Shown here: positions 5,117-64,000 of the stretch, in pieces | How positions within the stretch are numbered: the stretch's first letter is position 1 | Layout of the letters: each line of letters opens with the position of its first letter | Assembly: GCA_046598045.1 (NCBI GenBank) | Contig: JBKJJJ010000174.1 | Location: forward strand, 42,148-106,147 | Length of the DNA stretch: 64,000 nucleotides | Source: Candidatus Eiseniibacteriota bacterium | Lineage (GTDB): Bacteria; Eisenbacteria; RBG-16-71-46; DASYSL01 | Direction: 5' to 3' | Notes under the pieces: generated by a model | Database searches by the model: none | What the model was told of the DNA's origin: nothing | Seen by the model: the letters and a program-made list of their open reading frames with translations, nothing else | Program-made: the position numbers and the translations under genes

Positions 5117-8100
5117 TTACCTAGAGCCCACGGCGACGAACGCGCCCCAGCCCTTCGGGTGTGTGCTGGCGTGGTTCTTCCGTCGGGACTCGATCATTGC
5201 GATCGACGCGCGGCGTGCGGCCTGCGTGAGGTCGCCATGCGCCGGTAGGTAGCCATTGTAGAACTCGCCGATCCAGATGCGGGTCTGCAGGTCGTCCACC
5301 CGCCAGAGGCTCATCACGAGCGAGCGGGCTCCCGCAAGTTGGAATGCGCGGCGGAGGCCCATCATGCCCTCGCCGGCCATGACGTCCCCAACCCCGCTCT
5401 CGCAGGCCGAGAGCACGGCGCACCGCGCCTTCGACAGGTCGAGCGCGCTGATTTCCTCCGCCGTGAGGATGCCGTCGTCGCCGGTTCCCTGTCCGCGCCG
5501 GTTTGCACCGGCGAACACCAAGCCGGACCGACGGAGGGGGTTGGGTTCCTGGCTCGATGCCGACTCGCGGCGTTGATCGACAACCTGCGGTCCGCTCGAT
5601 GACGGGCTGCAGTTGTCCCCGAGGAAGAACCCATGACTCGCGACATGGATGTGTGCGCATCCCACCGCCAGGTGCTTGAAGGCGGTCTCTGTCGCTGCCT
5701 TCCCCATGAGTTGGTGCACGTTGCCGCCCCCTGCACGCCGCCAGGCCGCGGTGGTCTCGTCCGCCTCGACCGCTGTCTGCGCGAGCGGGTGGAACCGCTC
5801 GAGCGCGAAGCGAGCGCAGTCGGGCGCCGCGCCTCGGTAGACGCCACGAGATGAGAGCAAGGCCGGGAACGCCTTGGTCGGCGATTCCGCCGGGGCGGCG
5901 CCATCGAAGTCGACGTTGCCGACGACCAGCACCCCGCTCCCCGTGGCCGCCTCGGTGTTGCGCGCGACGAGGTCGCGCTCGCAGGTCTGAGGCGCAAAGA
6001 CCGGGCCCGTCTCCTCGAGGTACTTGCCGCCCTCGACGGGCAGAGTCCCAAGGTTGATCAATTGCAGGGAGCCATCAGGGACGACGTAGAGGACTTTTGG
6101 GGATCCGAGAGCGCCGGCGACCGGATCCCACACCGCCTCGCGCAGCCGTCCAGCCGCGAGCCGGTACGAGGCTTCGCCCGCGGACATCGAAGCCGAGTCC
6201 GAGGTGGCCTGCCGGTGCCACTCCGCAACCCTCGAGTCGATCCCGGCGGCGTCCCCGAGCAGGATGAGCCGGGGAGCGCCGCCCGGCGTCAGGACGAACG
6301 CCGCATACGATGCGATGCGACGAGCGATCTCGTGGCGCGCGTCGCCATGCGGCCCGCGGCGCAGGTACCTCACATAGGAGAGGAGCGCGGTCCCGGGCGG
6401 GAGCGTTCTAGAGACCTCGGTGAGTCCGGCGCGGCTGCGCGCGGAATCGAGCGCGAACCGAGCGCTCAGTCCACCCAGGCGTCGCTCGATCGCCTCGACA
6501 CTCCGCCTTGCGCTGTCGACACGCGCCTCGAAGTGCTCGATCGTGTCGTCGCCGGGTCCCTCTTCATGGAGCGTGGCCAGCGCTCCTGATTCGCGCGCCA
6601 ACTCGGAGGCGACCCGGACCGTGGTGGTGTCCGTGCTGGTCCAGGTCGCGCGCAGTCGCTCGGAGATTCCGTCGAGCACGAGGCTGCGCGCGCGGATCAC
6701 CGCGTCCCATGCCGTGACGACGCGGTCGGGCGCATTCGCGAGACTGATCGCCAGGTCGGTGCCAGATGGGCGAATCGAGGCGTAGTCGAGCGCCTCCCGC
6801 TCGGACAATCCTCGCAACGAGACGCGTAGGTGTTCGCGCCCCACGTTCTCGGCCTCGAGCGCGTAGCGGAACGCGTTAGCCGAATCTCCCATGTCGGCGA
6901 GCAGCCCCGAGAGCGCATCGCAGCTCTGCGCATAATCTGGGTGCTCCATGCCCAGCGTCGCCTTCCGCATCGAGAGCGCCCGTTCGTAGTCCCGGCGCGC
7001 GTCCGAGTAGTCGCCCAGGGCGTGCTCGACCTCGCCCAGATTGTCGAGCACGTGCGCCGTCATGACGTCGTCACCCGGGGACGTCTTGGACCACGCGGCA
7101 AGCGCGGTCTGGTAGCGCGTTTTTGCGAGCTCGAGGCTGTCCTGCATGAACGCGACGTAGCCCAGGTTGTCCCCGACTCGTGCGAGCTCCGGGTGACCCG
7201 GCGGATAGGCCTTGATCCAGATTGCCTGCGCGTGCAGGTACAGCGTCTCGGCCGCTGCGAAGTTGCCGAGCTCGCGCTGCGCGTTGCCCTCGTTGTTGTA
7301 GCTGCTCCCAACCGCCGGATGCCCCGGAGGCATGCGCTCGATGAAGATCGCGCGCGAGCGTTCGTACATCGGGATCGCCTCGGCCTGGTCGCCGAGACGC
7401 CGCAGCGTGCCGGCAAGCCCGTGGAGACCCTTGCCGACGTTCATGCCGGTCGGACCCTCGAGCTTCTCCCACGTCCTCAGGACGTCCTCGTAACGCGCGC
7501 GCGCCTCGACGTACTGGCCGAGGTCGTTCATGAGCACTGCAAGGTTGTAGGTATTGCCGGCGACCTCGCCCGGATCCGCGCCGGGCGTCGCACGCCACAC
7601 CGAGTCGGCCTGCACGTACGCCGCGCGCGCGTTCGTGAAGCCCTGCGACAGGTAATAGAGCCTCCCGACGCCGTTGAGATTCCGCGCAAGGCCGCTTGCG
7701 TCGTTCGAACGTTCACGGATCCGTCGCGCGCCGGTCTGCGCGGCGATCGCAGGCGGGAAGTCGAAGAGCACTCCGAGCACGCCTGCGAGCTGCTCGAGGC
7801 TGGTCGCGAGCTCAGGAGACCCCGGCTGCAGGCGCTGCCGGATCCGGACGCTGCGTTCGGCCAGCGCGCGCGACGCGGAGTCGCGCACCGAGCTGCGAAC
7901 GAGCCGGCCCTCGAGGACGAGATCCTGCACGCCAGCCAGCTCGATCGACGCCGTGTCCGCACGAGACTCGAATTCACCGATGACCTTCTGGCCGAGTGAG
8001 TCTGCGGGCGCGAAGCGGCGGGATCGAACCTGCGCGCGGAGCGAGTCGACCTCGGCGGGCGACGCAAGTGCGGTCCGGGGCGCCGGGGCGAGCGCCAGGG

Positions 8101-8128
8101 CAATCGCCAGGATCCATGCGCGCCTCAT
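5117..8128 (-). CDS. Periplasmic/secreted TPR-repeat protein with C-terminal CHAT (caspase-like) protease domain
   Basis: Signal peptide MRRAWILAIALALAPAP from M10 of track ORF 5117..8155. Many TPR-like helices through the middle. CHAT dyad motifs HVASHG and LSACESG near the C-terminus. Confidence 0.8.
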   Translation of the reverse strand: MRRAWILAIALALAPAPRTALASPAEVDSLRAQVRSRRFAPADSLGQKVIGEFESRADTASIELAGVQDLVLEGRLVRSSVRDSASRALAERSVRIRQRLQPGSPELATSLEQLAGVLGVLFDFPPAIAAQTGARRIRERSNDASGLARNLNGVGRLYYLSQGFTNARAAYVQADSVWRATPGADPGEVAGNTYNLAVLMNDLGQYVEARARYEDVLRTWEKLEGPTGMNVGKGLHGLAGTLRRLGDQAEAIPMYERSRAIFIERMPPGHPAVGSSYNNEGNAQRELGNFAAAETLYLHAQAIWIKAYPPGHPELARVGDNLGYVAFMQDSLELAKTRYQTALAAWSKTSPGDDVMTAHVLDNLGEVEHALGDYSDARRDYERALSMRKATLGMEHPDYAQSCDALSGLLADMGDSANAFRYALEAENVGREHLRVSLRGLSEREALDYASIRPSGTDLAISLANAPDRVVTAWDAVIRARSLVLDGISERLRATWTSTDTTTVRVASELARESGALATLHEEGPGDDTIEHFEARVDSARRSVEAIERRLGGLSARFALDSARSRAGLTEVSRTLPPGTALLSYVRYLRRGPHGDARHEIARRIASYAAFVLTPGGAPRLILLGDAAGIDSRVAEWHRQATSDSASMSAGEASYRLAAGRLREAVWDPVAGALGSPKVLYVVPDGSLQLINLGTLPVEGGKYLEETGPVFAPQTCERDLVARNTEAATGSGVLVVGNVDFDGAAPAESPTKAFPALLSSRGVYRGAAPDCARFALERFHPLAQTAVEADETTAAWRRAGGGNVHQLMGKAATETAFKHLAVGCAHIHVASHGFFLGDNCSPSSSGPQVVDQRRESASSQEPNPLRRSGLVFAGANRRGQGTGDDGILTAEEISALDLSKARCAVLSACESGVGDVMAGEGMMGLRRAFQLAGARSLVMSLWRVDDLQTRIWIGEFYNGYLPAHGDLTQAARRASIAMIESRRKNHASTHPKGWGAFVAVGSR

Positions 8129-9123
8129 CGTGTGCGCACTGAGAGTTGGAACCACGAGTCCTGGAAGTCCTTCGTCGGATTTGCGGCGCTGGCAATCCGG
8201 AGCCGGTACAGGCCCGACACGAAGCCGTGCTCGCCGCGCGGGACCGCGATGCGCGGTGTGTCGGCGAACGAGCTCAACCGATCCTCTCGCCGAACCAGCA
8301 GGACGTGACTTGGATCCACAACCGTCACGATCACACGGCCATCGGGATCGAACGGGGGCAGGTCGAACTCAACGGGGATCAGGTCGACGCCCGCATGGAT
8401 CGTGTCGGCCGGGGCGCCCGGCGCGCGATCGGCGGCCGTGCGGATCGGGGTGCCGACGATCGCGGCGGACAGGTTCGGGGTCGATGGGGTCTCGACGGGA
8501 GCCGGCGGCGGGCTCACGGGGGCGGGTGCCGGCGTTCCGTGATCGACCGGCGCGGGCGCAACCGGCGTACCGGTCGCCGGGCCGCCCGGCGCCGGGCGAT
8601 TCATCGGGTTCACGACCAGGATCAGCACCGCGGCCGCCGCGGCGACCAGCCCGCCGAAGGCGCTGCCCGTCCAGAATTCCCGCGATCGCCAGCGCGGCTG
8701 CGGCATGGGCACGACACGGGCCGTGTTCTGCGACAATAGGTCGAGCACCTCCCGGGACGGCTCGAGCCCGGCAACGTGCTTCAATTCGGGCGCGTGCCCG
8801 AGGTGCTTCAGGATTGCGCGGCATTCCTCGCACTCCACGAGGTGGCGCCGCGCGAGCTCGCGCTGGAGCCCGCGCAACGCGGGAGCCTGCTCGCCCCAGT
8901 GAATGATGAGTGGTTCGGGCAGGTGCCGCGACGGAGCGGCACCCGAGGCTCGTGCACGCTCGAGGACCTCGCGGCATTCGTCGCACAAAGCGGCATGCCG
9001 CTCGACCCGGTCGTCGTCGGCCGGGTCCAACAGACCCGCCGCGAACGGCGCGAGTTGACGCCGCGTCCAGTCGTGGTCGTCAGGCGCCGGCGTCACGCGG
9101 ACTCCAATCGCGAGCGGAACCAC
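8125..9123 (-). CDS. Anti-sigma factor, zf-HC2 type, single-pass membrane protein
   Basis: N-terminal H-x3-C-x2-C motif (HAALCDECREV) and a second HLVECEECRAI. One TM helix (LVAAAAAVLILVV), then a Pro-rich periplasmic domain. Sits immediately downstream of and overlapping the ECF sigma gene. Confidence 0.65.
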   Translation of the reverse strand: MVPLAIGVRVTPAPDDHDWTRRQLAPFAAGLLDPADDDRVERHAALCDECREVLERARASGAAPSRHLPEPLIIHWGEQAPALRGLQRELARRHLVECEECRAILKHLGHAPELKHVAGLEPSREVLDLLSQNTARVVPMPQPRWRSREFWTGSAFGGLVAAAAAVLILVVNPMNRPAPGGPATGTPVAPAPVDHGTPAPAPVSPPPAPVETPSTPNLSAAIVGTPIRTAADRAPGAPADTIHAGVDLIPVEFDLPPFDPDGRVIVTVVDPSHVLLVRREDRLSSFADTPRIAVPRGEHGFVSGLYRLRIASAANPTKDFQDSWFQLSVRTR

Positions 9124-9716
9124 TGACCGAGGGGTCCGTCATCTGACTTGCAGATCGTGCGGGCGCGGTCGCGGCAGCGCACGGACCGCTGACGCACGGT
9201 CGCGTGACTGAGTCCCAGTTTCTCGGCGACTAATCGCAGGTTGAGCGTGGTGAGCCAGTGCTCGAACAGTTCCCGGCACTGCCCCCCGAGCGACCGCATG
9301 ATCTCCTGGATGTAGAACTGCGCGTCCTCGGGGCGTAGCTCGTCGTCGTCGAGTTCGGGCAGTGGCATGGGCAGGTCCTTCTCCGGCAGCGGCTCTGTTC
9401 GAGGGCGCCAACGCATGCGATCGATCGCGACACGCCTGGCGATCTCCACCTCGAGTGCGACCTGGTTGTCGATCGGCCCGCGCAGGACGGCGCGCATCAC
9501 CCGGATGCAGGCATCCTGCGCCAGGTCCTCGAGCTCGTCGGGACCCACGAGACGTGTCAGGTTCGCCGCGATCACCCGCCTCATACGCGCCCTCGCCTCC
9601 TCCCAGTTCACCTGATCGAGCGGGCCGCCGCCTTCGGGCGACCGGTTGTCCAGGGTCATATCGGACCGATCCTCGGGTCTGGGAGTGGAGTCGGGCTGCG
9701 GGCAGGGGTGTGACAA
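9093..9716 (-). CDS. RNA polymerase ECF-type sigma-70 factor
   Basis: Sigma region 2 (DLAQDACIRVMRA) and region 4 helix-turn-helix (LRLVAEKLGLSHATVRQRSVRCRDR). The true start may be the internal ATG at about 9659. Confidence 0.75.
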   Translation of the reverse strand: MSHPCPQPDSTPRPEDRSDMTLDNRSPEGGGPLDQVNWEEARARMRRVIAANLTRLVGPDELEDLAQDACIRVMRAVLRGPIDNQVALEVEIARRVAIDRMRWRPRTEPLPEKDLPMPLPELDDDELRPEDAQFYIQEIMRSLGGQCRELFEHWLTTLNLRLVAEKLGLSHATVRQRSVRCRDRARTICKSDDGPLGQWFRSRLESA

Positions 9717-9898
9717 CTCGGCCGTCTAGTATCCGGCAGCGGTCCCCCGGAATCAATCCCGTATATTGCCAAGCCTATTCCTGCTAGGGGATTGCCGCCG
9801 GCGCGACAAGCTAACAAATTCCCGCGTCACACTTGGCCGACCGCTCGACCTCCTCCGCGAAGGTCACTGGATCACCGATCCGTCCCGAGGAGCTCGCG

Positions 9899-10742: not shown

Positions 10743-11378
10743 ATGTGGAACCGAGTCGTTCGAAACGCGATCGTCGTTGCCGCCATCTTCCTGCTTCCCC
10801 TCGCCGCGAGACCGGACCACCTGCGGCATCCCGCGCCCTGGCTTGCCGCCGCGGTGGCGCTCGTAGTGCTGATGTCGCAGCCGGCCGTCGACCTTTGCGA
10901 ATCGGCCTCGCGCGACGCATCCGATCGCGGATCGGCGCTCGGCATCTTTGCCGCGATGATCGGGGCCCAGGTTGCGTCCTCGCTCCAGTTCGCGGCGGGC
11001 CCGGCTGCACAGCCCGCTTGGACCCTCGCAGGCGGCGCCCTGCTCGTCGTGACCGGGCTCGCGCTCCGGCTTTGGGCGATCCGCACGCTCGGGCGCTTCT
11101 TCACGAGCACGGTGCGCGTGGCCGAGTCGCACCGTGTCGTTCAGGGCGGCCCGTACCAACTGCTCCGTCACCCGTCGTATACCGGCGCGCTCATGACCGC
11201 GCTCGGCACCGCGGCGTTGCTCGGCAGCACGGTCGGAGCGGCGCTGGTCGCCGTGCTATGCGTGCCCGCCTACCTGTATCGAATCGCCACTGAAGAGCGC
11301 GCGCTCATGAACGCGCTCGGTGCCGAGTACGCGGAGTATCGCAGCCGGACCTGGGGCGTCCTCCCCGGGTTGCGGTGA
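10743..11378 (+). CDS. Isoprenylcysteine carboxyl methyltransferase (ICMT/PEMT) family membrane methyltransferase
   Basis: Multi-TM protein with the ICMT signature GPYQLLRHPSYTGAL and C-terminal EERALMNALGAEYAEY. Confidence 0.75.
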   Translation: MWNRVVRNAIVVAAIFLLPLAARPDHLRHPAPWLAAAVALVVLMSQPAVDLCESASRDASDRGSALGIFAAMIGAQVASSLQFAAGPAAQPAWTLAGGALLVVTGLALRLWAIRTLGRFFTSTVRVAESHRVVQGGPYQLLRHPSYTGALMTALGTAALLGSTVGAALVAVLCVPAYLYRIATEERALMNALGAEYAEYRSRTWGVLPGLR

Positions 11379-30960: not shown

Positions 30961-31103
30961 CGCCGACCGAAAGCCCGACGACCGCGCTGTGGATAAGGGT
31001 GCGCAACTCTGCGCAGCGGTGATTCTAGATCTCTGAAACCATTGTTATACAATCAGTTGCACAAAGTCACCGCGGCCGTACGTTATCCACCGTCGCGCTT
31101 GGC
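30961..31103. promoter_or_regulatory. Convergent intergenic region with two DnaA-box-like 9-mers flanking an unusually AT-rich ~50-bp core (candidate DnaA-binding / oriC-associated element)
   Basis: TGTGGATAA (30988-30996) is the reverse complement of the consensus TTATCCACA. TTATCCACC (31083-31091) is an 8/9 match. Between them lies GATTCTAGATCTCTGAAACCATTGTTATACAATCAGTTGCACAAAGTCAC, which is far below the genomic GC. Confidence 0.35.
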
Positions 31104-31682
31104 TTAAGCGGAACGTGGAGTCCCGCCGCGACTTGCCCCGCCAACCCCAGCCGAAGCTCCGCCCGAGCCCGCCATGCCTCCCGGCTCATTGTTGGGGTTC
31201 TCGTCCAGCATGGTGCAGCGCCCTGAGAAGCGGACCCCTTCATCGATCACGATCGCGTGCGAGGTCAGGTCCCCGCGCACGCGGGCACCCCGGAGGAGGT
31301 CAATCCGCTCCTCGGCCTGGATTCCGCCGTCGAAGACCCCCCCGACAATCGCCTCGCGCACATGCACATCCGCTCGGACGTGTCCGTACGGTCCCACGAT
31401 GATGCGGTCACAGTTGAGGATGTCCCCTTCGAAATCGCCGTCCACCAGCAGCGTGCCCTCGATCATCAGGGTCCCGCGGAAGCTCGACCCCACCCCGATG
31501 TGGCAGTTGGTGACGATGTCATCGTCGTCGCTCGCGTCCTCCCGGCCCCGCGCGAACGGATTCTTCAGACCGCCGCGCGACTCCGAGGAATCCATCTCCG
31601 TGGGATCGAGGCCGAGCGCCTTCGCTGCGACGCGTTGAGCGAGGGACCTCCCCCGCGCCGGGTTCTTCGTGTCGTTGGTCAT
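31104..31682 (-). CDS. Bactofilin (DUF583) cytoskeletal protein
   Basis: Internal ATG at 31682 of track ORF 31104..31823, overlapping the parB stop by ATGA. Central bactofilin beta-helix repeats (IGVGSSFRGTLMIEGTLLVDGDFEGDILNCDRIIVGPYGHVRADVHVREAIVGGVFDGGIQAEERIDL). Disordered charged and Gly-rich termini. Confidence 0.8.
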   Translation of the reverse strand: MTNDTKNPARGRSLAQRVAAKALGLDPTEMDSSESRGGLKNPFARGREDASDDDDIVTNCHIGVGSSFRGTLMIEGTLLVDGDFEGDILNCDRIIVGPYGHVRADVHVREAIVGGVFDGGIQAEERIDLLRGARVRGDLTSHAIVIDEGVRFSGRCTMLDENPNNEPGGMAGSGGASAGVGGASRGGTPRSA

Positions 31683-32653
31683 CAGAGGACTCCCAGGTTC
31701 TCGAGCAGGCGCTCGAGATCGGTCTCGTTGTAGTACTCGATCTCGATCTGTCCGCGATCCGTGCTCCCCACGGGCACGATACGGACCTGGGTCGCGAGTT
31801 TCCGACGGAGTTCGTTTGTCCACTCCGCGTAAGTGCTAGAAACCGCATCCACAGCGGCTTGTGACGCGCCGTCGCCGCCGCGGCTCCTGCGCGAGGAGAT
31901 CTTGCGACGCATCTTGCGCGCGACCAGCGCCTCGGTTTTGCGAACGCTGAGACCCATGTCCGACACGTAGCGCGCGCTGGCTTCGATCTCGGCGCCGGAA
32001 GGCAAGCCGAGAAGTGCGCGGCCATGGCCCGCGGTCAATGTTCCACGTGAAACCATCGACTGTACCGACGCGGGAAGCGTGAGCAAGCGCAGCGCATTCG
32101 TGATCGAAGTGCGGTTCTTTCCCACGCGCTCACTCAGGCGCTCGTGCGTGTACTTCAACTCCTCGATCATGCGCTGATAACCGAGGGCCTCTTCGATCGC
32201 GTTGAGATCCTCGCGCTGGAGGTTCTCGATGAGCGCGATTTCAAGGATCTCGTCGTCGCTCACCTGGCGCACGATCGCCGGAATGGTCCCCAGTCCGATG
32301 CGTTGCGACGCGCGGAAGCGGCGCTCCCCCGCGATCAGTTGAAAATGGTCGCCGGCAGGACGAACCAGCACCGGTTGGAGCACGCCCTGGGCGCGAATCG
32401 ACTCCCCCAACTCGGCTAGCGCATCCTCGGTGAACTCGATTCGAGGCTGCTTCGGGTTGGGAACGATACGATCCAGCGGGATTTCCTGCACTCGCTCGCG
32501 AGTGTCCTCGGAGGCGGCGTAGCCCTGGGAAGGTCCCCCGGTTTCGGGTAGGTCGGTCGCCACGGCTCCGCTGGGAGCCTCCGTTTCGTCGCCCGGACCC
32601 GGCGCGCCAGGAATCAGCGCGCCCAGGCCACGGCCGAGAGCCTTTCTAGTCAT
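31682..32653 (-). CDS. parB: Chromosome partitioning protein ParB (Spo0J)
   Basis: Start MTRKALGRGLGALI (GRGL box), ParB/Srx motif VRPAGDHFQLIAGERRFRA, and HTH region. Overlaps the parA stop by 8 nt. Confidence 0.9.
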   Translation of the reverse strand: MTRKALGRGLGALIPGAPGPGDETEAPSGAVATDLPETGGPSQGYAASEDTRERVQEIPLDRIVPNPKQPRIEFTEDALAELGESIRAQGVLQPVLVRPAGDHFQLIAGERRFRASQRIGLGTIPAIVRQVSDDEILEIALIENLQREDLNAIEEALGYQRMIEELKYTHERLSERVGKNRTSITNALRLLTLPASVQSMVSRGTLTAGHGRALLGLPSGAEIEASARYVSDMGLSVRKTEALVARKMRRKISSRRSRGGDGASQAAVDAVSSTYAEWTNELRRKLATQVRIVPVGSTDRGQIEIEYYNETDLERLLENLGVL

Positions 32654-33407: not shown

Positions 33408-33562
33408 CGACCTTGAACGTCCTTGCGGGGGCCAGGGTTGTGTTTCAACGGGCGTACGAGCGCGCTCAAGGTACTCGGGCGTTCGGGCTCGGTCAATGTG
33501 CTTCTGAAAACGTGCTGGATTGCAGCCATTTACGCGGCACTACGAGAATGTTCCGCAGGGCT

Positions 33563-33578
33563 GTTCCACGTGAAACAT
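33563..33578. promoter_or_regulatory. parS: parS centromere-like site (perfect match to the Bacillus-type consensus)
   Basis: TGTTCCACGTGAAACA, the canonical 16-bp parS palindrome, about 160 bp upstream of parA. Confidence 0.8.
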
Positions 33579-33627: not shown

Positions 33628-33643
33628 TGTTCCACGTGGAACA
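33628..33643. promoter_or_regulatory. parS: Second parS site (one-mismatch, perfectly palindromic variant)
   Basis: TGTTCCACGTGGAACA, 65 bp from the first site. The small track ORFs translating MFHVEHRA here are artefacts of the palindromes. Confidence 0.7.
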
Positions 33644-41119: not shown

Positions 41120-41260
41120 CTACGAGGAGACGGTCAGACGCTTGCGGCCGCGGGCGCGACGACGCGCCAGGACCTTGCGACCGTTCGCCGTCTTCATCCG
41201 GGCACGGAAGCCGTGCACCTTCCTGCGGCGGCGGTTGTGGGGTTGAAACGTGCGCTTCAA
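41120..41260 (-). CDS. rpmH: 50S ribosomal protein L34
   Basis: TTG start at 41260, 6 nt downstream of GGAGG. Translates [47 protein letters not shown] (46 aa), matching the L34 consensus MKRTFQP..HGFRARM..GR.VL.RRRAKGRKRL. The 93-aa track ORF has a spurious extension. Confidence 0.8.
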
Positions 41261-41551
41261 GACAGACCTCCAGACAGGGGCGATTCCGGGAAACCCAAGA
41301 CCGGGAAAGTACTTAACTCCGGCCGGAAGGTCAAGGGTCGTGCCCCTGAAATTGCAGACCCTCTCCGAGGAGGCCGCGCCGGGCGCGGGCGGGAGGCCCA
41401 AAGTCGGCGGGCAGCCAAAATCGGACTCAACTCATTGTTCTGTATTGCATTAGGCTGACTCGCATATCATTTCAGGGGCACGAGGGAAGGGTTGCAGTCG
41501 TTCGCGGGGACCCTTAGCTTGTGTCCAACCCCCTCAGGAGGAGGCAAAACC

Positions 41552-46404: not shown

Positions 46405-46585
46405 ACGGTGCGAACAGTTTCGATCGGGTGCCCTGCAGCCAGGGGTGAAAAGGGAAGGGGGTGCGAATCCCCCACGATCCCGTCACTGTGATGGGCGAGC
46501 CGCGATTCCACGATGCCACTGGCCGCAAGGCCGGGAAGGCGGAACCGGCGCCGAGCCCTCAGTCAGGAGACCTGCCCGGTCCACG
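46405..46585 (+). promoter_or_regulatory. Cobalamin (adenosylcobalamin) riboswitch, Rfam RF00174-like
   Basis: Conserved elements in order: GGTGCC ... AGGGAA ... GGTGCGAATCC ... CACTGTGATGGG ... B12 box GCCACTGG ... GGGAAGGC ... AGTCAGGAGACCTGCC. It lies immediately upstream of a TonB-dependent receptor gene. Confidence 0.85.
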
Positions 46586-46713
46586 TTCCCGTGACTCTCC
46601 GCGAGAGAGAGGCTGGGCGATTTTCCCGTCCCGCCAAAGCGGGCGCCCGCCCGCCGCTCTCCCGTCGTGACGAGTCGCATGCCTGGACCAGCCACGAGGC
46701 GGGAGACCTCGTC

Positions 46714-48744
46714 GTGTCCTTCGTTCCCGCAATGGCATTGCTCGTGGCGCTCGCCTCCGGCGACAGCGTGCTCACGCTGCCGGGCGTCGAGGTGCGCGAC
46801 GCGCGCCCGCTCGACGACCCGGCGCTCCGCCGCGCCCCGGGGTTCGCGCGCTCGTACGACGTGACGCCGGCCTACGGCCGCCTCGGCACGGTGAGCGACC
46901 TGCTCGCGCGCGGCGTGGGCGTCCACGTGCGCCAGTTCGGCGGGCTCGGCGCGTTCAGCGCGGTGTCGATCCGCGGCTCCTCGAGCGCGCAGGTCGCGTA
47001 CTACCTCGACGGCGCTCCGCTCAACCAGGCGCAGTACGGCGTGGTCAATGCCGCCGACCTGCCGATCGAGGCGCTGTCGCGCATCGAGGTCTACCGCGGC
47101 GGCGCACCGCTCGCGTTCGATGCACCCGGGGGCGGCGTGGTCGAGCTGGTCACGCGCGACGACCCGGGCCGCTGGATGCGCGCCGACCTCGGCGGCGGCA
47201 GCTTCGGCACGCGCAAGCTGGACCTCGCATTGGGCGCGACCCGCGCGCGCACCACGCTCATGGCCGTCGTGCAGAGCCTCGCGAGCCACGGCGACTTCCG
47301 CTACCTCGACGACAACGCCACCGATGCCAACACGGACGACGACACGCTGCGCACGCGCGCGAACAACGCATTCGATTCTTACGCGGTCACCGCGCGCGTG
47401 GCGCAGGGCGTGGGCCCGGCACGGATCGCGCTGACACATGACCGCCTCGGCAAGCGCCAGGGCGTACCGGGCACGGGCGCGAACACCGCGCTCGCGGCGC
47501 GGCTGCGCACCGACCGCGCGGTGAGCGTGCTGCGCGCGGCCGCCGAGACCTGGCCGCTCACGCCCGTGCAGTCGTTCTTCTACGCGCAGCAACGCGACCG
47601 CTTCTCGGACCTCGCGCGGGAGTTGAGCGGGACGAAGCAGGACAACGACGATCACACCACGCGCTACGGGGCGCGCACCGAGGCTGCGCTTGCGCTGCCC
47701 GGCGCGCTCGGCGGCACGCATCGCCTCGCGCTGCTGGGCGAGGCGCGGCGCGAACGCTACACGCCGAAGATCAACCTGCCCGCGCCACGCGTGCTCGCCA
47801 CGTCGCAGCGCGAGGTCGCGATTTATGGCGCGGAAGATCGCTGGTCTCCGGGCCGCGGCCGGCTCGGGCTGACCGCGCAGGCCCGGCGCGAGCTGACGTT
47901 CGACGCGTTCCCCGCCGGACCGGCGTATCCGGGCGCGCTCCCGTCGCCGGCTGCTGACCGGACGATCCGCCTGACGCGCTGGACCGTGGCTGCGCACGTG
48001 GAGTTGGTGCGCGGCACGGCGGGGACGCTCGCGCTTCGCACCTCGCTCGCGCGGCTCGCGCGCACGCCCACGCTCGAGGAGCTGTTCGGCAACCGCGGGG
48101 GCGTGCACGGCAACCGCGACGCGCTGCCCGAGCGGGTGCTCACGCGCGACGCCGGGCTGACCGGCGCGTGGACGCTCGCGCAAGGCGGCGCGGCGCGGCC
48201 GCGCGCGCTCGAGGCCCAGCTGTCGGCGTACCGCTCGGACGCAGACGACTTGCTGGTGTTCATCCAGAACTCCGCGCGCACGTCGGTGGCGCAGAACGTG
48301 GCGGCGGCGCGGCTCGAGGGCATCGAGCTGGCGTCGCGCGCGGCGTGGGCGTGGGGCCTCTCCGCCGATCTTTCGTGGACGCGCCAGTGGACGCGCGACC
48401 AGGGGCAGGTCGCGTACTGGCGCGGCAAGGACCTGCCCGGCCGCCCGCGCGACGAGGCCAGCCTCGGGCTGTCGCTCGAGCGCGGCCCGGTGCGCGGCTT
48501 CGGCGAGCTGCACGCCACTTCCCCCTTCCATCTCGATCGCTACAACCAGGTCACGATCCCGGCACGCGCACTGGTCGACGTCGGCGCGTCGTACGCATTT
48601 GCCGGGCGCACCACCGATGTCGTCCTCGAATGCCGCAACGTGGGCGACGCGCACGTGCAGGACTTCGGCGGCTATCCCCTTCCCGGGCGCTCGTGGGCGC
48701 TGGGCATCCGTTTCCATCTCGATCGAAAGGCAGATCTCCCGTGA
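46714..48744 (+). CDS. btuB: TonB-dependent receptor, BtuB-like (vitamin B12/cobalamin outer-membrane transporter by riboswitch context)
   Basis: Signal peptide ..FVPAMALLVALASG. TonB box-like DSVLTLPGVEV. Plug-domain motifs (VSIRGSSSAQVAYYLDGAPL, IEVYRGGAPLAFDAPGGGVVELVTR). About 22-strand barrel length. The start is uncertain (GTG near 46714 or ATG 46732). Confidence 0.8.
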   Translation: MSFVPAMALLVALASGDSVLTLPGVEVRDARPLDDPALRRAPGFARSYDVTPAYGRLGTVSDLLARGVGVHVRQFGGLGAFSAVSIRGSSSAQVAYYLDGAPLNQAQYGVVNAADLPIEALSRIEVYRGGAPLAFDAPGGGVVELVTRDDPGRWMRADLGGGSFGTRKLDLALGATRARTTLMAVVQSLASHGDFRYLDDNATDANTDDDTLRTRANNAFDSYAVTARVAQGVGPARIALTHDRLGKRQGVPGTGANTALAARLRTDRAVSVLRAAAETWPLTPVQSFFYAQQRDRFSDLARELSGTKQDNDDHTTRYGARTEAALALPGALGGTHRLALLGEARRERYTPKINLPAPRVLATSQREVAIYGAEDRWSPGRGRLGLTAQARRELTFDAFPAGPAYPGALPSPAADRTIRLTRWTVAAHVELVRGTAGTLALRTSLARLARTPTLEELFGNRGGVHGNRDALPERVLTRDAGLTGAWTLAQGGAARPRALEAQLSAYRSDADDLLVFIQNSARTSVAQNVAAARLEGIELASRAAWAWGLSADLSWTRQWTRDQGQVAYWRGKDLPGRPRDEASLGLSLERGPVRGFGELHATSPFHLDRYNQVTIPARALVDVGASYAFAGRTTDVVLECRNVGDAHVQDFGGYPLPGRSWALGIRFHLDRKADLP

Positions 48745-58085: not shown

Positions 58086-59801
58086 TCAGCGCAGAACGAC
58101 GAACTTGGCTCCGTCGGACATCTCCCCGCTCTGATCGCGCACCCGCGCGAAGTACACACCCGGACGGATCCCACCCCCCTGGAGTGGAATCTTCAGCGTC
58201 TGTGCGTCACGATCGGCTCGTTGGACCCTTGCCTGCTGAACTACGCGGCCCGCGAGATCATAGATCGTGACCGTGAGTTCGGATCCGATCGCATCGCTCA
58301 AATCAAGCGTGAGCGCGTCGGTCGTGAAGCCCCGCGGACGAGCCTCGAAGTGCCGCTTGCGGCCGCCTCCCGGGGAAAATCGCGCAATCGGGCTGAGCCA
58401 CTCGAACCGCGAGTCGACGCTCTCGCGGCGAATGCGGTACGAAATGTCGTCCCTCTGAGACCACCCCGAACGATTATCGAGGTCCGTCCAACTCATCGCG
58501 AGACTTGCTCCCGCCTGGAGCCGGGCGACCGCTGCGAATTCGCCAGCCCCGGTTCGCCGCAACACCGACCACCACGTCCCGGGAGCCAAGGTCGAGAGCG
58601 TCCAGGTCAATCGGGGATGTCCCTGGGAGACGTCCACCGCGGGAACGCTCGTGGTCGCGGAGGTATGGGTGTGCGTATAGCGGAAAGGCTGAAAGGATTC
58701 GGACCACGCGACCCAGGCGTCGCCGTTGCGGTCACGTCCGATCGACGGAACGGCGCCATATCCACTGCTGTAGAACTGATCGCCCGGATCCCAGCCATGA
58801 TCATTGGGGAAGTTGACGACGACACCGGCGGAGCCGTCGAGATAGTTGGTGTACGCCCACGTCACGAGCGGTCGGTAGGCGGCGTCCCGGCTCAGGTCGG
58901 TCGAGAGGGCCTCGGCCCCGCGCGGCGTCGTGATCGCAGGACAGAACAGCGTCTCCGGGGCCGACCACACGTGGCCGTCGAACCGCCGGAGAAAGACGCT
59001 CTGTTCCCCGCTGCTCCACGTCATCCAGGCGCCGCCACCGGCACTAAATCGAAGTCGGGGACCGCCCGCGAACCCGGATGTGAGGATTTCGGGAGAGCGC
59101 TCCCACCGGCTTCCGCGAAGAACTCCCCAGTCAAGCGGCTCTCCGTTTCCAGCCCATGCCATGAGCGCGGTCGTGTCGTCGAGCGCGACCAGGTTGAGGC
59201 CGTAGTTGCCGATCGCTCCCGTCGAGACTTCATTCCATCGGTCGCGCTCATCGGAATAGAACAGGCGGAGAACACCACGGTCCTCGATCGCCACCCATCG
59301 TCTAGGATCTCGAAACGCGCCACCGTACGAGGTTCGAAATTGGCCGACTTGAGCCACGATCTCGGGCGGGGTCGGGTGATCGTCGATCACCTCGGAAACG
59401 AAAAACGTGTGGTCCGTCGCGTAGGATCCGCCAGTGTACACGAGGGGATAGCGTCCGACGGGCGCGTCGACAGCATACAGTCCGAGCGGGTTCGCCCCAA
59501 GGGTCCACCACGGCTCCCACAAGCTCCCAAGCCACTTGTACGCAAGTCCGTCGTCCTGCTGCGAGTCCTGATACAGAACCCCCGTTCCGATCAGCAGAGG
59601 ACTTCCGGTGGCGGTCATCTCGACCCGCGGGACCACGAGTTCATTGAACCCGGAAACCTGTAGCACCTCGACGTCTCCCCACTCCCTGCCGGCAGGAGCC
59701 GCCACCGCTAGCATAGGAACCAACCAAGCAACGAGTCCGAGGCCTCTGACAAGAAGGCCGACGGCATCGCATTTCGACTTCCGCCCCATCATGACCTCCA
59801 C
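58086..59801 (-). CDS. Secreted protein with T9SS type-A / FlgD-Ig-like C-terminal sorting domain
   Basis: Signal peptide LVAWLVPMLAVAAPA. The large N-terminal domain has Trp-rich beta-propeller-like repeats. C-terminus LTLDLSDAIGSELTVTIYDLAGRVVQQARVQRADRDAQTLKIPLQGGGIRPGVYFARV. Confidence 0.6.
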   Translation of the reverse strand: MEVMMGRKSKCDAVGLLVRGLGLVAWLVPMLAVAAPAGREWGDVEVLQVSGFNELVVPRVEMTATGSPLLIGTGVLYQDSQQDDGLAYKWLGSLWEPWWTLGANPLGLYAVDAPVGRYPLVYTGGSYATDHTFFVSEVIDDHPTPPEIVAQVGQFRTSYGGAFRDPRRWVAIEDRGVLRLFYSDERDRWNEVSTGAIGNYGLNLVALDDTTALMAWAGNGEPLDWGVLRGSRWERSPEILTSGFAGGPRLRFSAGGGAWMTWSSGEQSVFLRRFDGHVWSAPETLFCPAITTPRGAEALSTDLSRDAAYRPLVTWAYTNYLDGSAGVVVNFPNDHGWDPGDQFYSSGYGAVPSIGRDRNGDAWVAWSESFQPFRYTHTHTSATTSVPAVDVSQGHPRLTWTLSTLAPGTWWSVLRRTGAGEFAAVARLQAGASLAMSWTDLDNRSGWSQRDDISYRIRRESVDSRFEWLSPIARFSPGGGRKRHFEARPRGFTTDALTLDLSDAIGSELTVTIYDLAGRVVQQARVQRADRDAQTLKIPLQGGGIRPGVYFARVRDQSGEMSDGAKFVVLR

Positions 59802-59831
59802 ATTCTTGGCATCGCCATCAATTCTAGCTTG

Positions 59832-59842
59832 CCCCCCCCCCC
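59832..59842. repeat. Homopolymeric C11/G11 tract in a divergent promoter region
   Basis: GCTTG-CCCCCCCCCCC-TAATCG lies between the - strand gene start at 59801 and the + strand ATG at 59984. Confidence 0.7.
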
Positions 59843-59983
59843 CTAATCGAGCGCAGAATGTTTGCCGAACTCCGTCGGCCGGTTAGCCACCCCCCGGCTC
59901 AGCCTTCCATAGCCGCAAGTGCCCTTCCGACTGCGCCCTGCAAATCGCCCTGGGAAACGCCCCTCCCGCCTTGGAGGTTCGAC

Positions 59984-62900
59984 ATGGACGTCAAAGTTCC
60001 CTCCTCAGCAACTGCGCTCGCCCTGGCGGCGGTGCTGCTCGTTTCAAGTGCAGAAGGCTCGGGGACTGGTATAAGCGTCGCCGGCGACGCTGTGACCACC
60101 TCGTCTACGACCGACACGCTCTTCTTTCCTTACAGGCCGAAGGTGACCGGAACGCAGTCTCGATATACGAGAGACTTGGAATTTCAGCTCTCTTCGCGAT
60201 ATTCGATTGGCCGAGGGGATGCCACTCCCGGACGAATCGGATCCGATAATTTGACGCTGATAAATTTCGGCGCGACTCTCACCGACTCGATCGGCAAGAA
60301 CCCGTTCAACGCGCCATACTCGGATTTGCATCTCGGCTACGACTATTTTTCCAGGACAGGCCAGCAGTACGATCCAAACCCATTCAACCCAGTCGGCTTC
60401 ACTCTCCCCATCAGCGACGGGAGCTACCCGACGGTCGACAAGGCCCATGTCGACTTCTACATCTTCGAACCGGGGCAGACCCAGGCCCTGAACTTCAGAG
60501 GTAGTGGAAGCGCTCCGTCGTTCTTCACGACACCGAAGGAAGATTCCTCGACCGGGCATTGGTCGTCGCCGACGAACTTCACCGTCCTTCCGAAGAATTC
60601 GGCCATGGGTGTCGGCCCGTCTCGCGCTGCGCTTGCGGATGTCGGGGGGACCGGCTGGACGCGGCCCGGACAGGCAGCCAACTGGACCTTCACGCATGAA
60701 TTTCAGCACCTCGTTTCTGGAGGCTCAGCCTCTACGGGGAATGCGCTGGAGGAGCTCTTCTCCGCCGGCGCTGAGGTGCTCACCGGGGACTTGCCGAGTG
60801 ATGCAGCAGCCTTCGATTACGCGTACACTTGGAGCTTATTGGTCAACGACAATGTCGGTCTGGGTGGCGTGAGAAGTGCCGGGGCGAACTACGCGGGCAG
60901 GCGACTCCTCGCGGCGTATCTCTTGTACAACTATCGCAATCAGGATACGACGGCGACGCTGAACGTGGGCTCGACGGTCGGGGGATTTGCGGACGACCTC
61001 TTCTATCGCTGGGCGCGGGAATCGTTACGAACTTTCGGCAGCCTCCAGGGCCTGCTCTCGAACGCCAGTTGCTACACTTGTTCTCTCCGCCCCTCGTTGA
61101 GTCCCGGAGGGCAACCGCTCTCGGACTACGATCGCCTGCAACTCGTGATTCACCAGATGAGGGTGGCCAGCTTCGTCAACAACCCGTTCCTCGCGGCCGA
61201 CGCGAGCGGTTACGGCCCGTACGGCTATCCGCCCCGGTTCGGCTTCTCGCCCGCGGCCGACGTGGGCGCCTGGCGGGACATCGATCCCAACGGCCCTAAC
61301 GTCGTCGCCATTCCGCAGGAAGTGACGGCGCGGCCGGGTTGGGTCTCGCGCGACACGGTCCTCTCGAAGGACCGCTCGAGGGACGGGGTCTCCTACCCGC
61401 TCGTTCTGCAGCCGTATGGGTCGGAGTACTGGGTGATCCGGTCCACTTCCGGCATCTCCGCGGGCACGGACTTGATGGTTCGGGTGGAGTCCGACAGCAT
61501 TTTTCGGACGTCGACGCTCTTGGGGCTGTACTGTCTTCCGCTTGGCAAGCTGGATGCCCGGCTGATGGCGACCGTGGTGGGCTATACGCAGCAATCCGAC
61601 AGCCTCTGGGCTCACCCCGAGTACGCGGGAACGGTCCTCGACACGCGTTGGGTGGACGTCGACAGCCTCGCCGGCGAGTTCGTCTTCTCCCTGCCGAACT
61701 TCGGCACGCAGTACCGTGCTGCCGTCCTCACCCTGACCCTCGGAGACGGGCCGTCGTTCGGGCTCAACGCGGCCAGTAGCTTTAACACGTATCAGGAGGC
61801 CGTGCATTACCGCCTCAATCTCGGGCTGCGCAAGTCTCCACCCGCCGGGTCCGACCCCGCGGCCTTAGTCGAATCGTCGGTGACCGAGGACTATCCCGCC
61901 TGGTCCCCCAATGGGACCGAGATCGCCTACGAGTCTGCCGATGCCCCGAACTCGAGAATCATGAGAAAGCCGGTCGCCGGCGGTGCGGCCACGGTCCTTG
62001 TCAGCGCGTCGAATTCCCAGCACACGCCCGATTGGTCCCCGCGCGGCGACCGCGTCGCCTTCGCCGAAGATGCCGCAGGGGGCAATCGCCACATCCGCTC
62101 GTACAACTTGACCACGCAGGTCGCGACAGACCTGACCACGGGAACGGTCTCCGATCTCTACCCGGTCTTCCAACCCAACGGCGAGCGGCTCGCCTACGTG
62201 CGCACCATCCCCGGCAGCGGCCAGTGGACGATTCGCCGTGTCAACGTGGACGGAAGCAACGATGCGGCGATCCTGACGACCGCGCTGAGCACGGCCATCG
62301 TGTCTCCGCGCTGGACCCCGAACGGCCAGGCCGTCTACTTCGTCAGCAACAGTCGGCTCTATTCCGTCCCCGTGAGCGGGGGAACAGCCACTCCTCAGGA
62401 CTCTCTCGGTCGAGATATCGCTACGTTCGATCTGCCGCGGGGGAGCGGTCGCCTGCTGATCGAGAACGCCGCCTCCCTGCGCTGGATCTGCGATGACGCA
62501 AACGCTCCAGCATTCATGCCCTATCGCCGCATCGCCCTGAGGGACACGCTCGCGAGCCCGAAGGATACGGAGATGCGCTGGTATCGCACCGGCGCCAGCT
62601 TCTGGAGCCCCCGCTACTCGTTCGACAACACGCGCATCGCCTACCGCTCGGACCAGAACGCCGCCTCAGGCGGGGATCTCTATATCGGCCAAGCCGTCTA
62701 CGATCACGCGCCGACGTTCGTGAGCACGGTCACGGACACGACGGTCGGCATGGGGATCGGATTGAGCCTGAGCCTCGCCGCCAATGACCCGGACGGGGAT
62801 GCCCTCACCTACTCCGGGGCCTACTTTCCAGCGGGGGCGAGCCTGATCGGCAACCTCTTCTCCTGGCCGAGCCCGGATACGACCGGCGGCCCGGTTTCGG

Positions 62901-64000
62901 TCGTCCTTCGAGCCCTGAGCCCGGGGGGCGCGCTCGCCAGCAAGGTGGTCAAGATCACGGTCGTCCCCAGGCCGGTGGCCGTTGCCACTCTGGTGGCCGA
63001 TGCGGGCAGGACCACCGCGGCTGCCGCGTGGTCCGAGCCCAATCAGCCACAGGGGCAGGCAACTTCCTACGAATTGCGCTACCTGATTAACACGACGATC
63101 ACCGAGAACAATTTCTCGACGGGGACGGTCGTCTCCCAGTCGGAGGTCCCCGGACCTGCGGGAACACCGCACTGTGTCCTGATCCCGGGCATTGCTTCGT
63201 GCAAGAATCTCTCGATCGCAGTGAGGACATGGAGGAATGGCATTCCCTCCACGATCAGCAATGTCGCGAGCGCGAGCACCGCGTGTTCGGGATCCCTTGA
63301 GGTGAGCTGCGGCGACTTCGGGCTGTGGGGTGGAGGAGGTGGCGGCGGGTTCTTGCGGGCCGGCGGTACGCGCACCGCTTCGACCTCGGGTTCCCCCGGC
63401 TCGGCCGTCTCGAACGCCACTTCGGCCTCGGAAAACTCCATACTCGGCGACGTCCACGGAACATCCAGGGCGGACCTTCTGCGGCTGCCCACCCCGATCG
63501 AGCCCGACCACGGCGAGTACGCGATCCATGTGCGAAGGAACGACGGCCGGACGATGGACCTCGACCAGGTCGCTCTGCTTGCGGTGGATCACGCGGACGG
63601 CGAAGCGGCCATCGCATCGAACGACGGCGTGCTGATCGGCACATGCGCGGGAGTCGCTTCGATTCGCGACCTGCTCGGGCAGGTCGGTTCCGATGCCGCA
63701 GGACAGCTCTCCGATGGTGGGATCGTGCTCGGACGGGAGAATGCTCTCACCATCGAACTGGACGACCGGGAACCGTCGTCGGTGCTCGTGATCGACTGCG
63801 TTGCCCCGGCGGCGGAGGTCGTGCGCGATTCAGCAGGCGTTGCCGTCCAGATTCCGACCGGCGACGGCGACTGGGGGACGATCGACCTGGTGCGGCCACG
63901 TGCGGCGGCGGATCGGAGGGCCGTCGACCTGCGAGGGTCGCACAGCGCACGCCTCGTGGCACTCGGGAAATACACGATTCTGCGGGTTCAGCGTCTGGCC
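59984..64000 (+). CDS. Very large secreted multidomain protein, 3'-truncated by the window edge (over 1338 aa): HExxH gluzincin-like metallopeptidase region, PD40/TolB-like beta-propeller repeats, cadherin-like and FN3-like domains, and a poly-Gly linker
   Basis: The ORF runs from ATG 59984 (GGAGG 8 nt upstream) in frame 2 to the window end and is absent from the supplied track. Signal peptide MDVKVPSSATALALAAVLLVSSAEG. FTHEFQHLVSGGSASTGNALEEL (HExxH with a downstream Glu). Five WSP-x-G-x-x-IAY/F PD40-like repeats (DYPAWSPNGTEIAYES, HTPDWSPRGDRVAFAE, LYPVFQPNGERLAYVR, VSPRWTPNGQAVYFVS, WSPRYSFDNTRIAYRS). NDPDGDALTYS cadherin-like motif. GGGGGGG linker. The 5' 400 nt is markedly lower in GC than the surroundings. 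Confidence 0.7.
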   Translation, partial: MDVKVPSSATALALAAVLLVSSAEGSGTGISVAGDAVTTSSTTDTLFFPYRPKVTGTQSRYTRDLEFQLSSRYSIGRGDATPGRIGSDNLTLINFGATLTDSIGKNPFNAPYSDLHLGYDYFSRTGQQYDPNPFNPVGFTLPISDGSYPTVDKAHVDFYIFEPGQTQALNFRGSGSAPSFFTTPKEDSSTGHWSSPTNFTVLPKNSAMGVGPSRAALADVGGTGWTRPGQAANWTFTHEFQHLVSGGSASTGNALEELFSAGAEVLTGDLPSDAAAFDYAYTWSLLVNDNVGLGGVRSAGANYAGRRLLAAYLLYNYRNQDTTATLNVGSTVGGFADDLFYRWARESLRTFGSLQGLLSNASCYTCSLRPSLSPGGQPLSDYDRLQLVIHQMRVASFVNNPFLAADASGYGPYGYPPRFGFSPAADVGAWRDIDPNGPNVVAIPQEVTARPGWVSRDTVLSKDRSRDGVSYPLVLQPYGSEYWVIRSTSGISAGTDLMVRVESDSIFRTSTLLGLYCLPLGKLDARLMATVVGYTQQSDSLWAHPEYAGTVLDTRWVDVDSLAGEFVFSLPNFGTQYRAAVLTLTLGDGPSFGLNAASSFNTYQEAVHYRLNLGLRKSPPAGSDPAALVESSVTEDYPAWSPNGTEIAYESADAPNSRIMRKPVAGGAATVLVSASNSQHTPDWSPRGDRVAFAEDAAGGNRHIRSYNLTTQVATDLTTGTVSDLYPVFQPNGERLAYVRTIPGSGQWTIRRVNVDGSNDAAILTTALSTAIVSPRWTPNGQAVYFVSNSRLYSVPVSGGTATPQDSLGRDIATFDLPRGSGRLLIENAASLRWICDDANAPAFMPYRRIALRDTLASPKDTEMRWYRTGASFWSPRYSFDNTRIAYRSDQNAASGGDLYIGQAVYDHAPTFVSTVTDTTVGMGIGLSLSLAANDPDGDALTYSGAYFPAGASLIGNLFSWPSPDTTGGPVSVVLRALSPGGALASKVVKITVVPRPVAVATLVADAGRTTAAAAWSEPNQPQGQATSYELRYLINTTITENNFSTGTVVSQSEVPGPAGTPHCVLIPGIASCKNLSIAVRTWRNGIPSTISNVASASTACSGSLEVSCGDFGLWGGGGGGGFLRAGGTRTASTSGSPGSAVSNATSASENSILGDVHGTSRADLLRLPTPIEPDHGEYAIHVRRNDGRTMDLDQVALLAVDHADGEAAIASNDGVLIGTCAGVASIRDLLGQVGSDAAGQLSDGGIVLGRENALTIELDDREPSSVLVIDCVAPAAEVVRDSAGVAVQIPTGDGDWGTIDLVRPRAAADRRAVDLRGSHSARLVALGKYTILRVQRLA

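Follow-up and report, generated by a model that had tools for sequence, protein, structure and literature searches.

The window, the 64-kb stretch of DNA analysed here, derives from Candidatus Eisenbacteria and has a GC content of ~68%. Its minus strand carries, from right to left, the genes rpmH, rnpA, yidC, jag, mnmE, mnmG, rsmG, parA, parB and bactofilin, and the parB loci closest to its own belong to two Eisenbacteria MAGs (85% and 79% identity). The parB gene is overlapped and directly followed by the bactofilin gene, an arrangement kept throughout the clade, which we take to be reminiscent of the link between ParABS and bactofilins (BacNOP/PadC) in Myxococcus. Bactofilin orthologues are 74–85% identical in one comparison and 66–85% identical across the related loci that keep the boxes described below, while the small open reading frame (ORF) that faces the bactofilin gene has homologues in 43 clusters, each at least 51% identical and all on Eisenbacteria-like contigs. 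With a mean column identity of 83%, this ORF is a real, strongly conserved gene. It had no Pfam or NCBIfam match, and its AlphaFold2 model (pLDDT 88; an N-terminal helix and a long beta-hairpin sheet) had no significant fold match in the PDB; a role as a DnaA regulator was considered for it and set aside, as there was no family match and, for all the confidence of the model, no fold match.

The two genes converge on a short gap (Table 1). A first-pass annotation of the sequence had placed this gap beside bactofilin-parB-parA and the rpmH-to-mnmG cluster and had reported dnaA to be absent from the window. Gene annotation confirmed the former, and Pfam scans of all large ORFs in the 64 kb agreed with the latter, finding neither dnaA nor dnaN. 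The same annotation had described two parS sites; the number of parS-like sites is three, with one inside parB, ~0.95 kb from box 1, and two upstream of parA.

Table 1 Features of the convergent gap and its neighbourhood, in coordinates of the window (A5, alignment of 15 related sequences)
Feature	Position	Strand	Description
Small ORF, 107 aa	30637-30960	+	Convergent toward bactofilin; conserved Eisenbacteria-specific protein
Convergent gap	30961-31103		143 bp, between small ORF and bactofilin
Box 2, strong	30988-30996	-	Perfect TTATCCACA on minus strand, TGTGGATAA on plus strand
Box 3, weak	30998-31006	-	TTGCGCACC on minus strand; also given as GTTGCGCAC
Spacer	31007-31082		76 bp; length fixed, sequence free
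AT-rich core	31020-31069		Within spacer of the window
Central TTA (TTC in window)	31035-31037	-	Near element midpoint; A5 column 65 invariant, column 66 nearly so
Conserved AA	31057-31058	-	A5 columns 44-45, within GCAAC; A at column 44 invariant in 15 sequences
Box 1, strong	31081-31091	+	TTATCCACC, 8/9 match, at 31083-31091; conserved 5' extension, CGTTATCCAC
Bactofilin gene	31104-31823	-	Pfam PF04519, E = 7e-23; last gene of parA-parB-bactofilin operon
parS-like site	32039-32054	+	Inside parB; 14/16 bases match; 0.03 expected by chance
Two parS sites	33562-33577 and 33628-33643	+	Upstream of parA
rpmH	41135-41262	-	Start of operon running to bactofilin

Three further features of the window lie away from this locus. 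A strong cobalamin riboswitch (46409-46593, plus strand; 119.7 bits) sits immediately upstream of a TonB-dependent receptor gene (~46492-48744). A block of minus-strand ORFs (58086-63975) with a third-position GC of 0.51–0.74, against about 0.9 elsewhere, has almost no Pfam matches and is probably horizontally acquired DNA. The minus strand at 5117-9725 encodes a CHAT-TPR protein of 1083 aa and, after it, a zf-HC2 anti-sigma-like protein and a protein with sigma-70 region 2, which together may form an ECF sigma/anti-sigma/CHAT protease module.

DnaA boxes and spacer of the convergent gap

A pattern search recovered the arrangement described in the first-pass annotation, in which one perfect and one 8/9 DnaA box stand opposed around an AT-rich core. 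When no more than one mismatch to TTATCCACA is allowed, the 64 kb contain only two matches, TGTGGATAA and TTATCCACC, both of them in the gap. Two boxes in the window is a total not above chance (1.66 expected); their co-location, unlike their count, exceeds it, given that two such boxes lay within 150 bp of each other in 1.3% of Markov simulations of 64 kb, and that shuffles of the gap sequence contained two boxes in 0.014% of cases. Box 3 (TTGCGCACC), which has three mismatches to TTWTNCACA, lies head-to-tail with box 2 on its inner side, 10 bp from start to start. The ACA ends of all three boxes point outward from the core, into GC-rich coding DNA, and the 3' end of the bactofilin gene abuts box 1.

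Related loci were identified by scanning genomes with ParB, by scanning metagenomes with a bactofilin alignment and from contigs carrying homologues of the small ORF. All relatives share the same gene order (DUF885, small ORF, gap, bactofilin, parB, parA, and rsmG onward). Carriers of the element include the MAGs GCA_975254425.1 and GCA_050733935.1 and the assemblies to which JBDTYW010000048 and JBKJOC010000261 belong. Both strong boxes and their inverted orientation are kept in 17 related Eisenbacteria loci, and small-ORF identity across the loci keeping the boxes is 65–88%. The distance between box starts is 95 bp in 15 loci, 96 bp in L058 and L059, and 94 bp in L053, where the element is degenerate. 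The first-pass annotation had named a lack of conservation in related genomes as grounds for giving up its proposal; as the boxes are conserved, together with their orientation and spacing, in the Eisenbacteria loci that reach the gap, those grounds fall away. One metagenomic locus (L057; JGI 3300044699) was excluded from the alignments because its many split genes and its altered box 1 (TTATCCCAC) are consistent with homopolymer indel errors in the assembly.

An alignment of 12 sequences contains no gaps, and GGTGGATAACGTA and the box 2 core TATCCACA are invariant within it. When three more distant loci were added, the resulting 15-sequence alignment (A5) required a single 1-nt gap and still kept the cores GGTG.A.AAC and T.TCCAC. 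Box 2 varies in distant loci, reading TTGTCCACC in L054, where it is the high-GC variant, CCATCCACC in L053 and TTTTCCACA in L060; the substitutions in L054 and L060 are ordinary DnaA-box variants. Box 1 is the more constant of the strong pair, as GGTGGATAACG (minus strand) is invariant in all loci save the degenerate L053, and in L058 the box is a perfect TTATCCACA. Box 3 has the general form TT[GA][CT]NCAC, which also holds in L058 and L060. Across its A5 columns (96–104), T1, T2, C6, A7 and C8 are invariant in the 15 sequences and position 5 is free, in agreement with the consensus TTATNCACA, and this variation reads as the degeneracy expected of a weak DnaA box.

Related loci carry essentially no further boxes. 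L058 and L059 have an extra one-mismatch box (TGTGGATGA, at 8772 and 8637, respectively) in the parA-rsmG intergenic region, which holds parS in the window; this box is absent from the window. In L053 (1190-1226), a more distant lineage, the degenerate element is accompanied by two added boxes of the high-GC type (AGTCCACAC and TTGTCCACC) immediately beyond the left box, which suggests that the cluster was remodelled in a lineage-specific way. L052, with a small ORF that is 51% identical, is the most divergent relative; its gap is 27 bp long and lacks the element, which is thus not essential throughout the group.

In L001 and L002, the bactofilin ORF runs on and ends at a TAA stop inside box 1. 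Coding constraint was considered as the cause of the conservation of this box and was rejected, as the ORF enters the box only in these two loci and elsewhere stops 21 nt upstream. Just outside box 2, between this box and the stop of the small ORF, the motif CGTCGG(G/A)GTTGGACCG occurs in L041, L042, L044-L046 and L002, and in L041 (~816-880) it is repeated two to three times; the copy in the window is degenerate (GTCGGGCTTTCGGTCGG, 30963-30980, minus strand). Outside the Eisenbacteria, DnaA-box-like 9-mers after parB were found only in L009 among the Gemmatimonadota, Acidobacteriota and other loci checked, with the box scan of the Treponema loci being locus-wide only. In L009, a Gemmatimonadaceae MAG, the tandem box-like 9-mers GAATCCACA and GTATCCACA lie 12 bp apart directly after the parB stop (10803-10824), while three other Gemmatimonadota loci have none. 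A general habit of placing DnaA boxes after parB in other phyla was therefore rejected, since this one contig is the only example among the loci checked.

Between the boxes, sequence is far less constrained than length. Spacers have a mean pairwise identity of 42% and a minimum of 17%, and their base composition differs among lineages. The AT-rich core of the first-pass annotation was found as described in the window, where the 50-mer starting at 31020 is the most AT-rich of all (66% AT). Spacer GC is 46–51% in the window, L039, L001 and L002 and 63–73% in L040-L046; spacers are visibly AT-rich in L054, L055 and L060 and visibly GC-rich in L058. The AT-rich core is lineage-specific in an architecture that is otherwise identical across loci. 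Few spacer positions are conserved. They include the AA at a fixed distance from box 1 and, at the midpoint, a nearly invariant A at 31042, which with the central TTA gives A-N4-TTR, a partial IHF-like motif seen also in L058 and L060, whose sequences were read by eye. Only the window, L001 and L002 match the full IHF consensus WATCAANNNNTTR at 7–8 of its 9 positions (A5, by eye), and the central match is weak in GC-rich lineages; the IHF-like midpoint motif is suggestive only.

The geometry of the element is accordingly that of two inverted strong boxes 95 bp apart, about nine helical turns, with a weak box 10 bp inside the left one. Since intervals of 10, 85 and 95 bp correspond closely to one, eight and nine helical turns, all three sites would lie on the same face of the helix, and the combination of a fixed spacer length with a free spacer sequence is the signature of proteins contacting each other across the spacer. 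It is probable that the replication initiator binds these boxes, beside the genes for chromosome partition. With moderate confidence, we read the gap as a compact, conserved, non-origin DnaA-binding module with a regulatory role, in which the boxes, their conservation, orientation and spacing are observed, and DnaA binding, DNA bending and a regulatory output are what we infer from this layout.

Alternative readings of the gap

A reasonable alternative, albeit an unlikely one, is that the boxes form a DnaA-dependent, bidirectional transcription roadblock that halts RNA polymerase arriving from either convergent gene and so replaces an intrinsic terminator. The genes converge, no such terminator (GC hairpin and T run) was found in the gap, spacers fold no better than shuffles in most loci, and each incoming polymerase would meet the same (T/G)GTGGATAA on its coding strand. 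There is also precedent at asnC-mioC in E. coli, where DnaA/DnaA-box complexes block transcription in an orientation-dependent manner. However, a roadblock leaves the spacing unexplained, as two independent blocks need neither an exact 95-bp interval nor a third, phased box, and there is no obvious reason to tie termination to the level of the initiator. Two other candidates were rejected. An antisense promoter into bactofilin (TTGCAC-N16-TACGTT, with box 1 over the start site) fitted the first 12 loci, but in L054, L055, L058 and L060 TACGTT becomes ATCGTT, TTCGTT or CTCGTT and the -35 element is lost. A dif/XerCD site was suggested by the resemblance of GGTGCGCA to a XerC arm, but there is no accompanying XerD arm, and the locus adjoins parAB.

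The first-pass annotation had proposed a relocated oriC or a DnaA-titration element. A DnaA-binding element is well supported by the conserved boxes, their orientation and their spacing, while the relocated oriC is not supported. That the gap is the chromosomal origin, or the DnaA-assembly half of one, relocated from dnaA to where the par operon ends, is quite unlikely, despite several features that would suit it. Conserved blocks separated by variable sequence of fixed length, as seen here, are the classic pattern in comparisons of enterobacterial oriC. With TGTGGATAA on the left and TTATCCACC on the right, the strong boxes also repeat the layout of the anchors R1 and R4 of E. coli oriC, which are oppositely oriented. 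The most AT-rich 50-mer of the window lies inside the gap, and the 64 kb contain no other DnaA box and no dnaA. Finally, raw and third-position GC skew within the 64 kb follow the coding strand, and after correction for coding strand the third-position skew of the window alone has its best breakpoint at 30–32 kb, with the sign of an origin, at a non-significant F of about 2.5; skew over these 64 kb is uninformative as to the skew minimum that the first-pass annotation had named as a check.

Against these points, the features by which origins are recognised are largely missing. Origin calls usually require at least three boxes (TTWTNCACA, at most one mismatch) that are on average <100 bp apart; here, two boxes qualify and the third is weak. 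A conserved AT-rich DNA unwinding element (DUE) adjoining the boxes was not found in the related loci, where the core is not conserved, spacers are GC-rich in half the lineages and the outer flanks are GC-rich coding DNA. The bacterial basal unwinding system (BUS) consists of a box, a spacer of 0–16 nt and at least three DnaA-trios located 3' of TTATCCACA (PMC8287927). For our search, the orientation of the trios was taken from the C. difficile example 5'-CAC CTA CTA CTA. E. coli R1 has the same orientation relative to its DUE, with the unwinding region 3' of TTATCCACA. In the gap, this side of each box faces outward into coding DNA, and no run of trios, (NTN)x3 within 16 nt, was found in any of the 15 loci. 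Usable non-coding space amounts to 86–143 bp, the element is missing in L052, and, as estimated from ORF coordinates, a fork moving right from the gap would meet ~71% of the coding DNA on that side head-on, the whole rpmH-to-bactofilin operon included. The gap is therefore probably not oriC itself, though the ~110-bp module may alternatively be an unusually minimal origin without a BUS. For annotation, the locus serves as a warning that a good pair of DnaA boxes and a locally AT-rich core beside parB are insufficient to call an origin.

It is decidedly unlikely that the likeness to a DnaA box is fortuitous and that the sites are bound by another sequence-specific protein, such as a regulator of the par/bactofilin system confined to this lineage. 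Conservation at box 1 exceeds the 9-mer (CGTTATCCAC), the central invariant bases are not explained by DnaA, and the element co-occurs with the Eisenbacteria-specific small ORF, all of which such a protein would accommodate. Yet two independent sites share the exact core of the DnaA box, and the variants they tolerate, a G at the third position and any base at the fifth, are those known from DnaA boxes. A G precedes TTATCCACA at the R boxes of E. coli too. Least probable, and largely refuted, is a structured RNA or DNA hairpin (a 3'-UTR element, small RNA or terminator) unrelated to DnaA, in which the 9-mers would pair as a conserved stem. In its favour, GTGGATAA is the perfect complement of TTATCCAC, the two enclose a further inverted repeat (GCAGCGGTGA / TCACCGCGGC) in the window, and the L054 substitutions still permit G-U pairing. 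However, RNAalifold gives the outer box-box stem only, in which no pair covaries, and no inner structure is common to the loci. Folding z-scores are spread about 0 for the spacers and are -1.5 and -0.9 for the whole gap, and Rfam finds no known RNA family in the gap, whether at gathering score or with E relaxed to 10. The weak third box is left unpaired, and L053 breaks three stem pairs without compensation, which argues for two separate protein sites and not a base-paired stem.

Comparison with known DnaA loci

The DnaA-binding module favoured here was compared with the chromosomal loci at which DnaA is known to act. In E. coli datA, the locus of DnaA-ATP hydrolysis (DDAH), the minimal form combines a pair of high-affinity boxes with a single low-affinity box and an IHF site, in optimised orientation and at optimised intervals (PMC5742627). 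The gap is likewise a non-coding locus with two strong boxes and one weak box, its intervals are fixed to within 1 bp in 17 loci, and at the midpoint, where datA has a central bend site, it has the partial A-N4-TTR motif. In contrast, the essential boxes of datA point in the same direction, while here box 1 faces the opposite way to boxes 2 and 3. The two loci share no sequence homology, and the element spans ~110 bp against 183 bp for minimal datA. A datA-type activity could be present here but is putative.

In B. subtilis, clusters of DnaA boxes close to oriC but outside the dnaA-linked origin, one of them between thdF and jag, restrain initiation and interact genetically with Spo0J/Soj (PMC3245932). 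The boxes described here share with these clusters both an intergenic position and a conserved neighbourhood (jag, thdF/mnmE, gidA, gidB, soj, spo0J), which corresponds to the rpmH-to-parB region of the window. However, the B. subtilis clusters are looser and have no reported strict architecture, whereas the gap between the convergent genes contains three precisely phased sites. Helical phasing has a parallel at another B. subtilis site, a distal DnaA box that acts via a helically phased DNA loop in either orientation (PMC6669920). In Caulobacter, DnaA binds the parS region and so links replication control to segregation (PMC6399470). As in Caulobacter crescentus, a candidate initiator site lies next to the ParABS partition locus, but the boxes here are 1–2.6 kb from the parS sites instead of within the parS region, and the two arrangements are unrelated and arose independently.

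The remaining comparisons are with E. coli. Like R1 and R4 of oriC, the strong boxes are opposed with their TTA sides inward, and a weaker site of the same orientation lies beside one anchor; they differ in spanning 104 bp against about 200 bp, and in having no flanking DUE, no conserved interior array of low-affinity sites and no BUS trios. The cores of DARS1 and DARS2 also have three boxes, one opposed to two, with opposed boxes being the distinctive DARS feature. Box I of DARS runs against boxes II and III and is in direct head-to-head contact with box II, whereas the opposed boxes here are 76–86 bp apart and thus lack the DARS packing. The element would work like datA or a DnaA-box cluster, yet it belongs to no named family, departing from the same-direction rule of datA, from the box adjacency of DARS and from three features that define oriC. 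It is best classed as an Eisenbacteria-specific regulatory locus of the chromosome that binds DnaA.

Proposed mechanism and significance

In the proposed mechanism, DnaA would occupy the two strong boxes as anchors and from there recruit further DnaA onto the weak box, with the spacer probably bent or looped, perhaps by a protein of the IHF/HU type, so that the DnaA molecules are brought into contact. Such a complex could titrate or inactivate the initiator soon after initiation or after replication of the region, as at datA and the B. subtilis clusters, and it could also couple DnaA activity to the adjacent ParABS-bactofilin partition machinery. Gene clusters of the rpmH-to-parB type are origin-proximal in most bacteria, and the position of the module in such a usually origin-near cluster, at the 3' end of the par operon and ~1 kb from parS, suggests a non-origin DnaA regulatory locus. 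Speaking against a regulatory module are the little titration capacity that three boxes offer, the inversion of the strong pair relative to the same-direction essential boxes of datA, the partial nature of the IHF-like match and the lack of the element in L052. Its clean geometry and its position beside the partition locus make the module attractive, but its function is predicted from sequence.

A more specific proposal, and an unlikely one, is that DnaA binding is mechanically coupled to segregation, with the module acting as an initiator-dependent licence or boundary for the ParB/bactofilin complex. If true, this would be an independent invention, in an uncultured phylum, of a link between DnaA and the centromere that has so far been seen only in Caulobacter.

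To our knowledge, non-origin DnaA loci (datA, DARS and the B. subtilis clusters) have been described in detail only in two model organisms and share no common architecture. The element described here is conserved through a phylum known only from metagenomes and adjoins the ParABS-bactofilin segregation genes. If it binds DnaA, it would provide a compact, testable case of how box spacing and orientation build a regulatory DnaA complex, as well as a second possible example of crosstalk between initiator and centromere.
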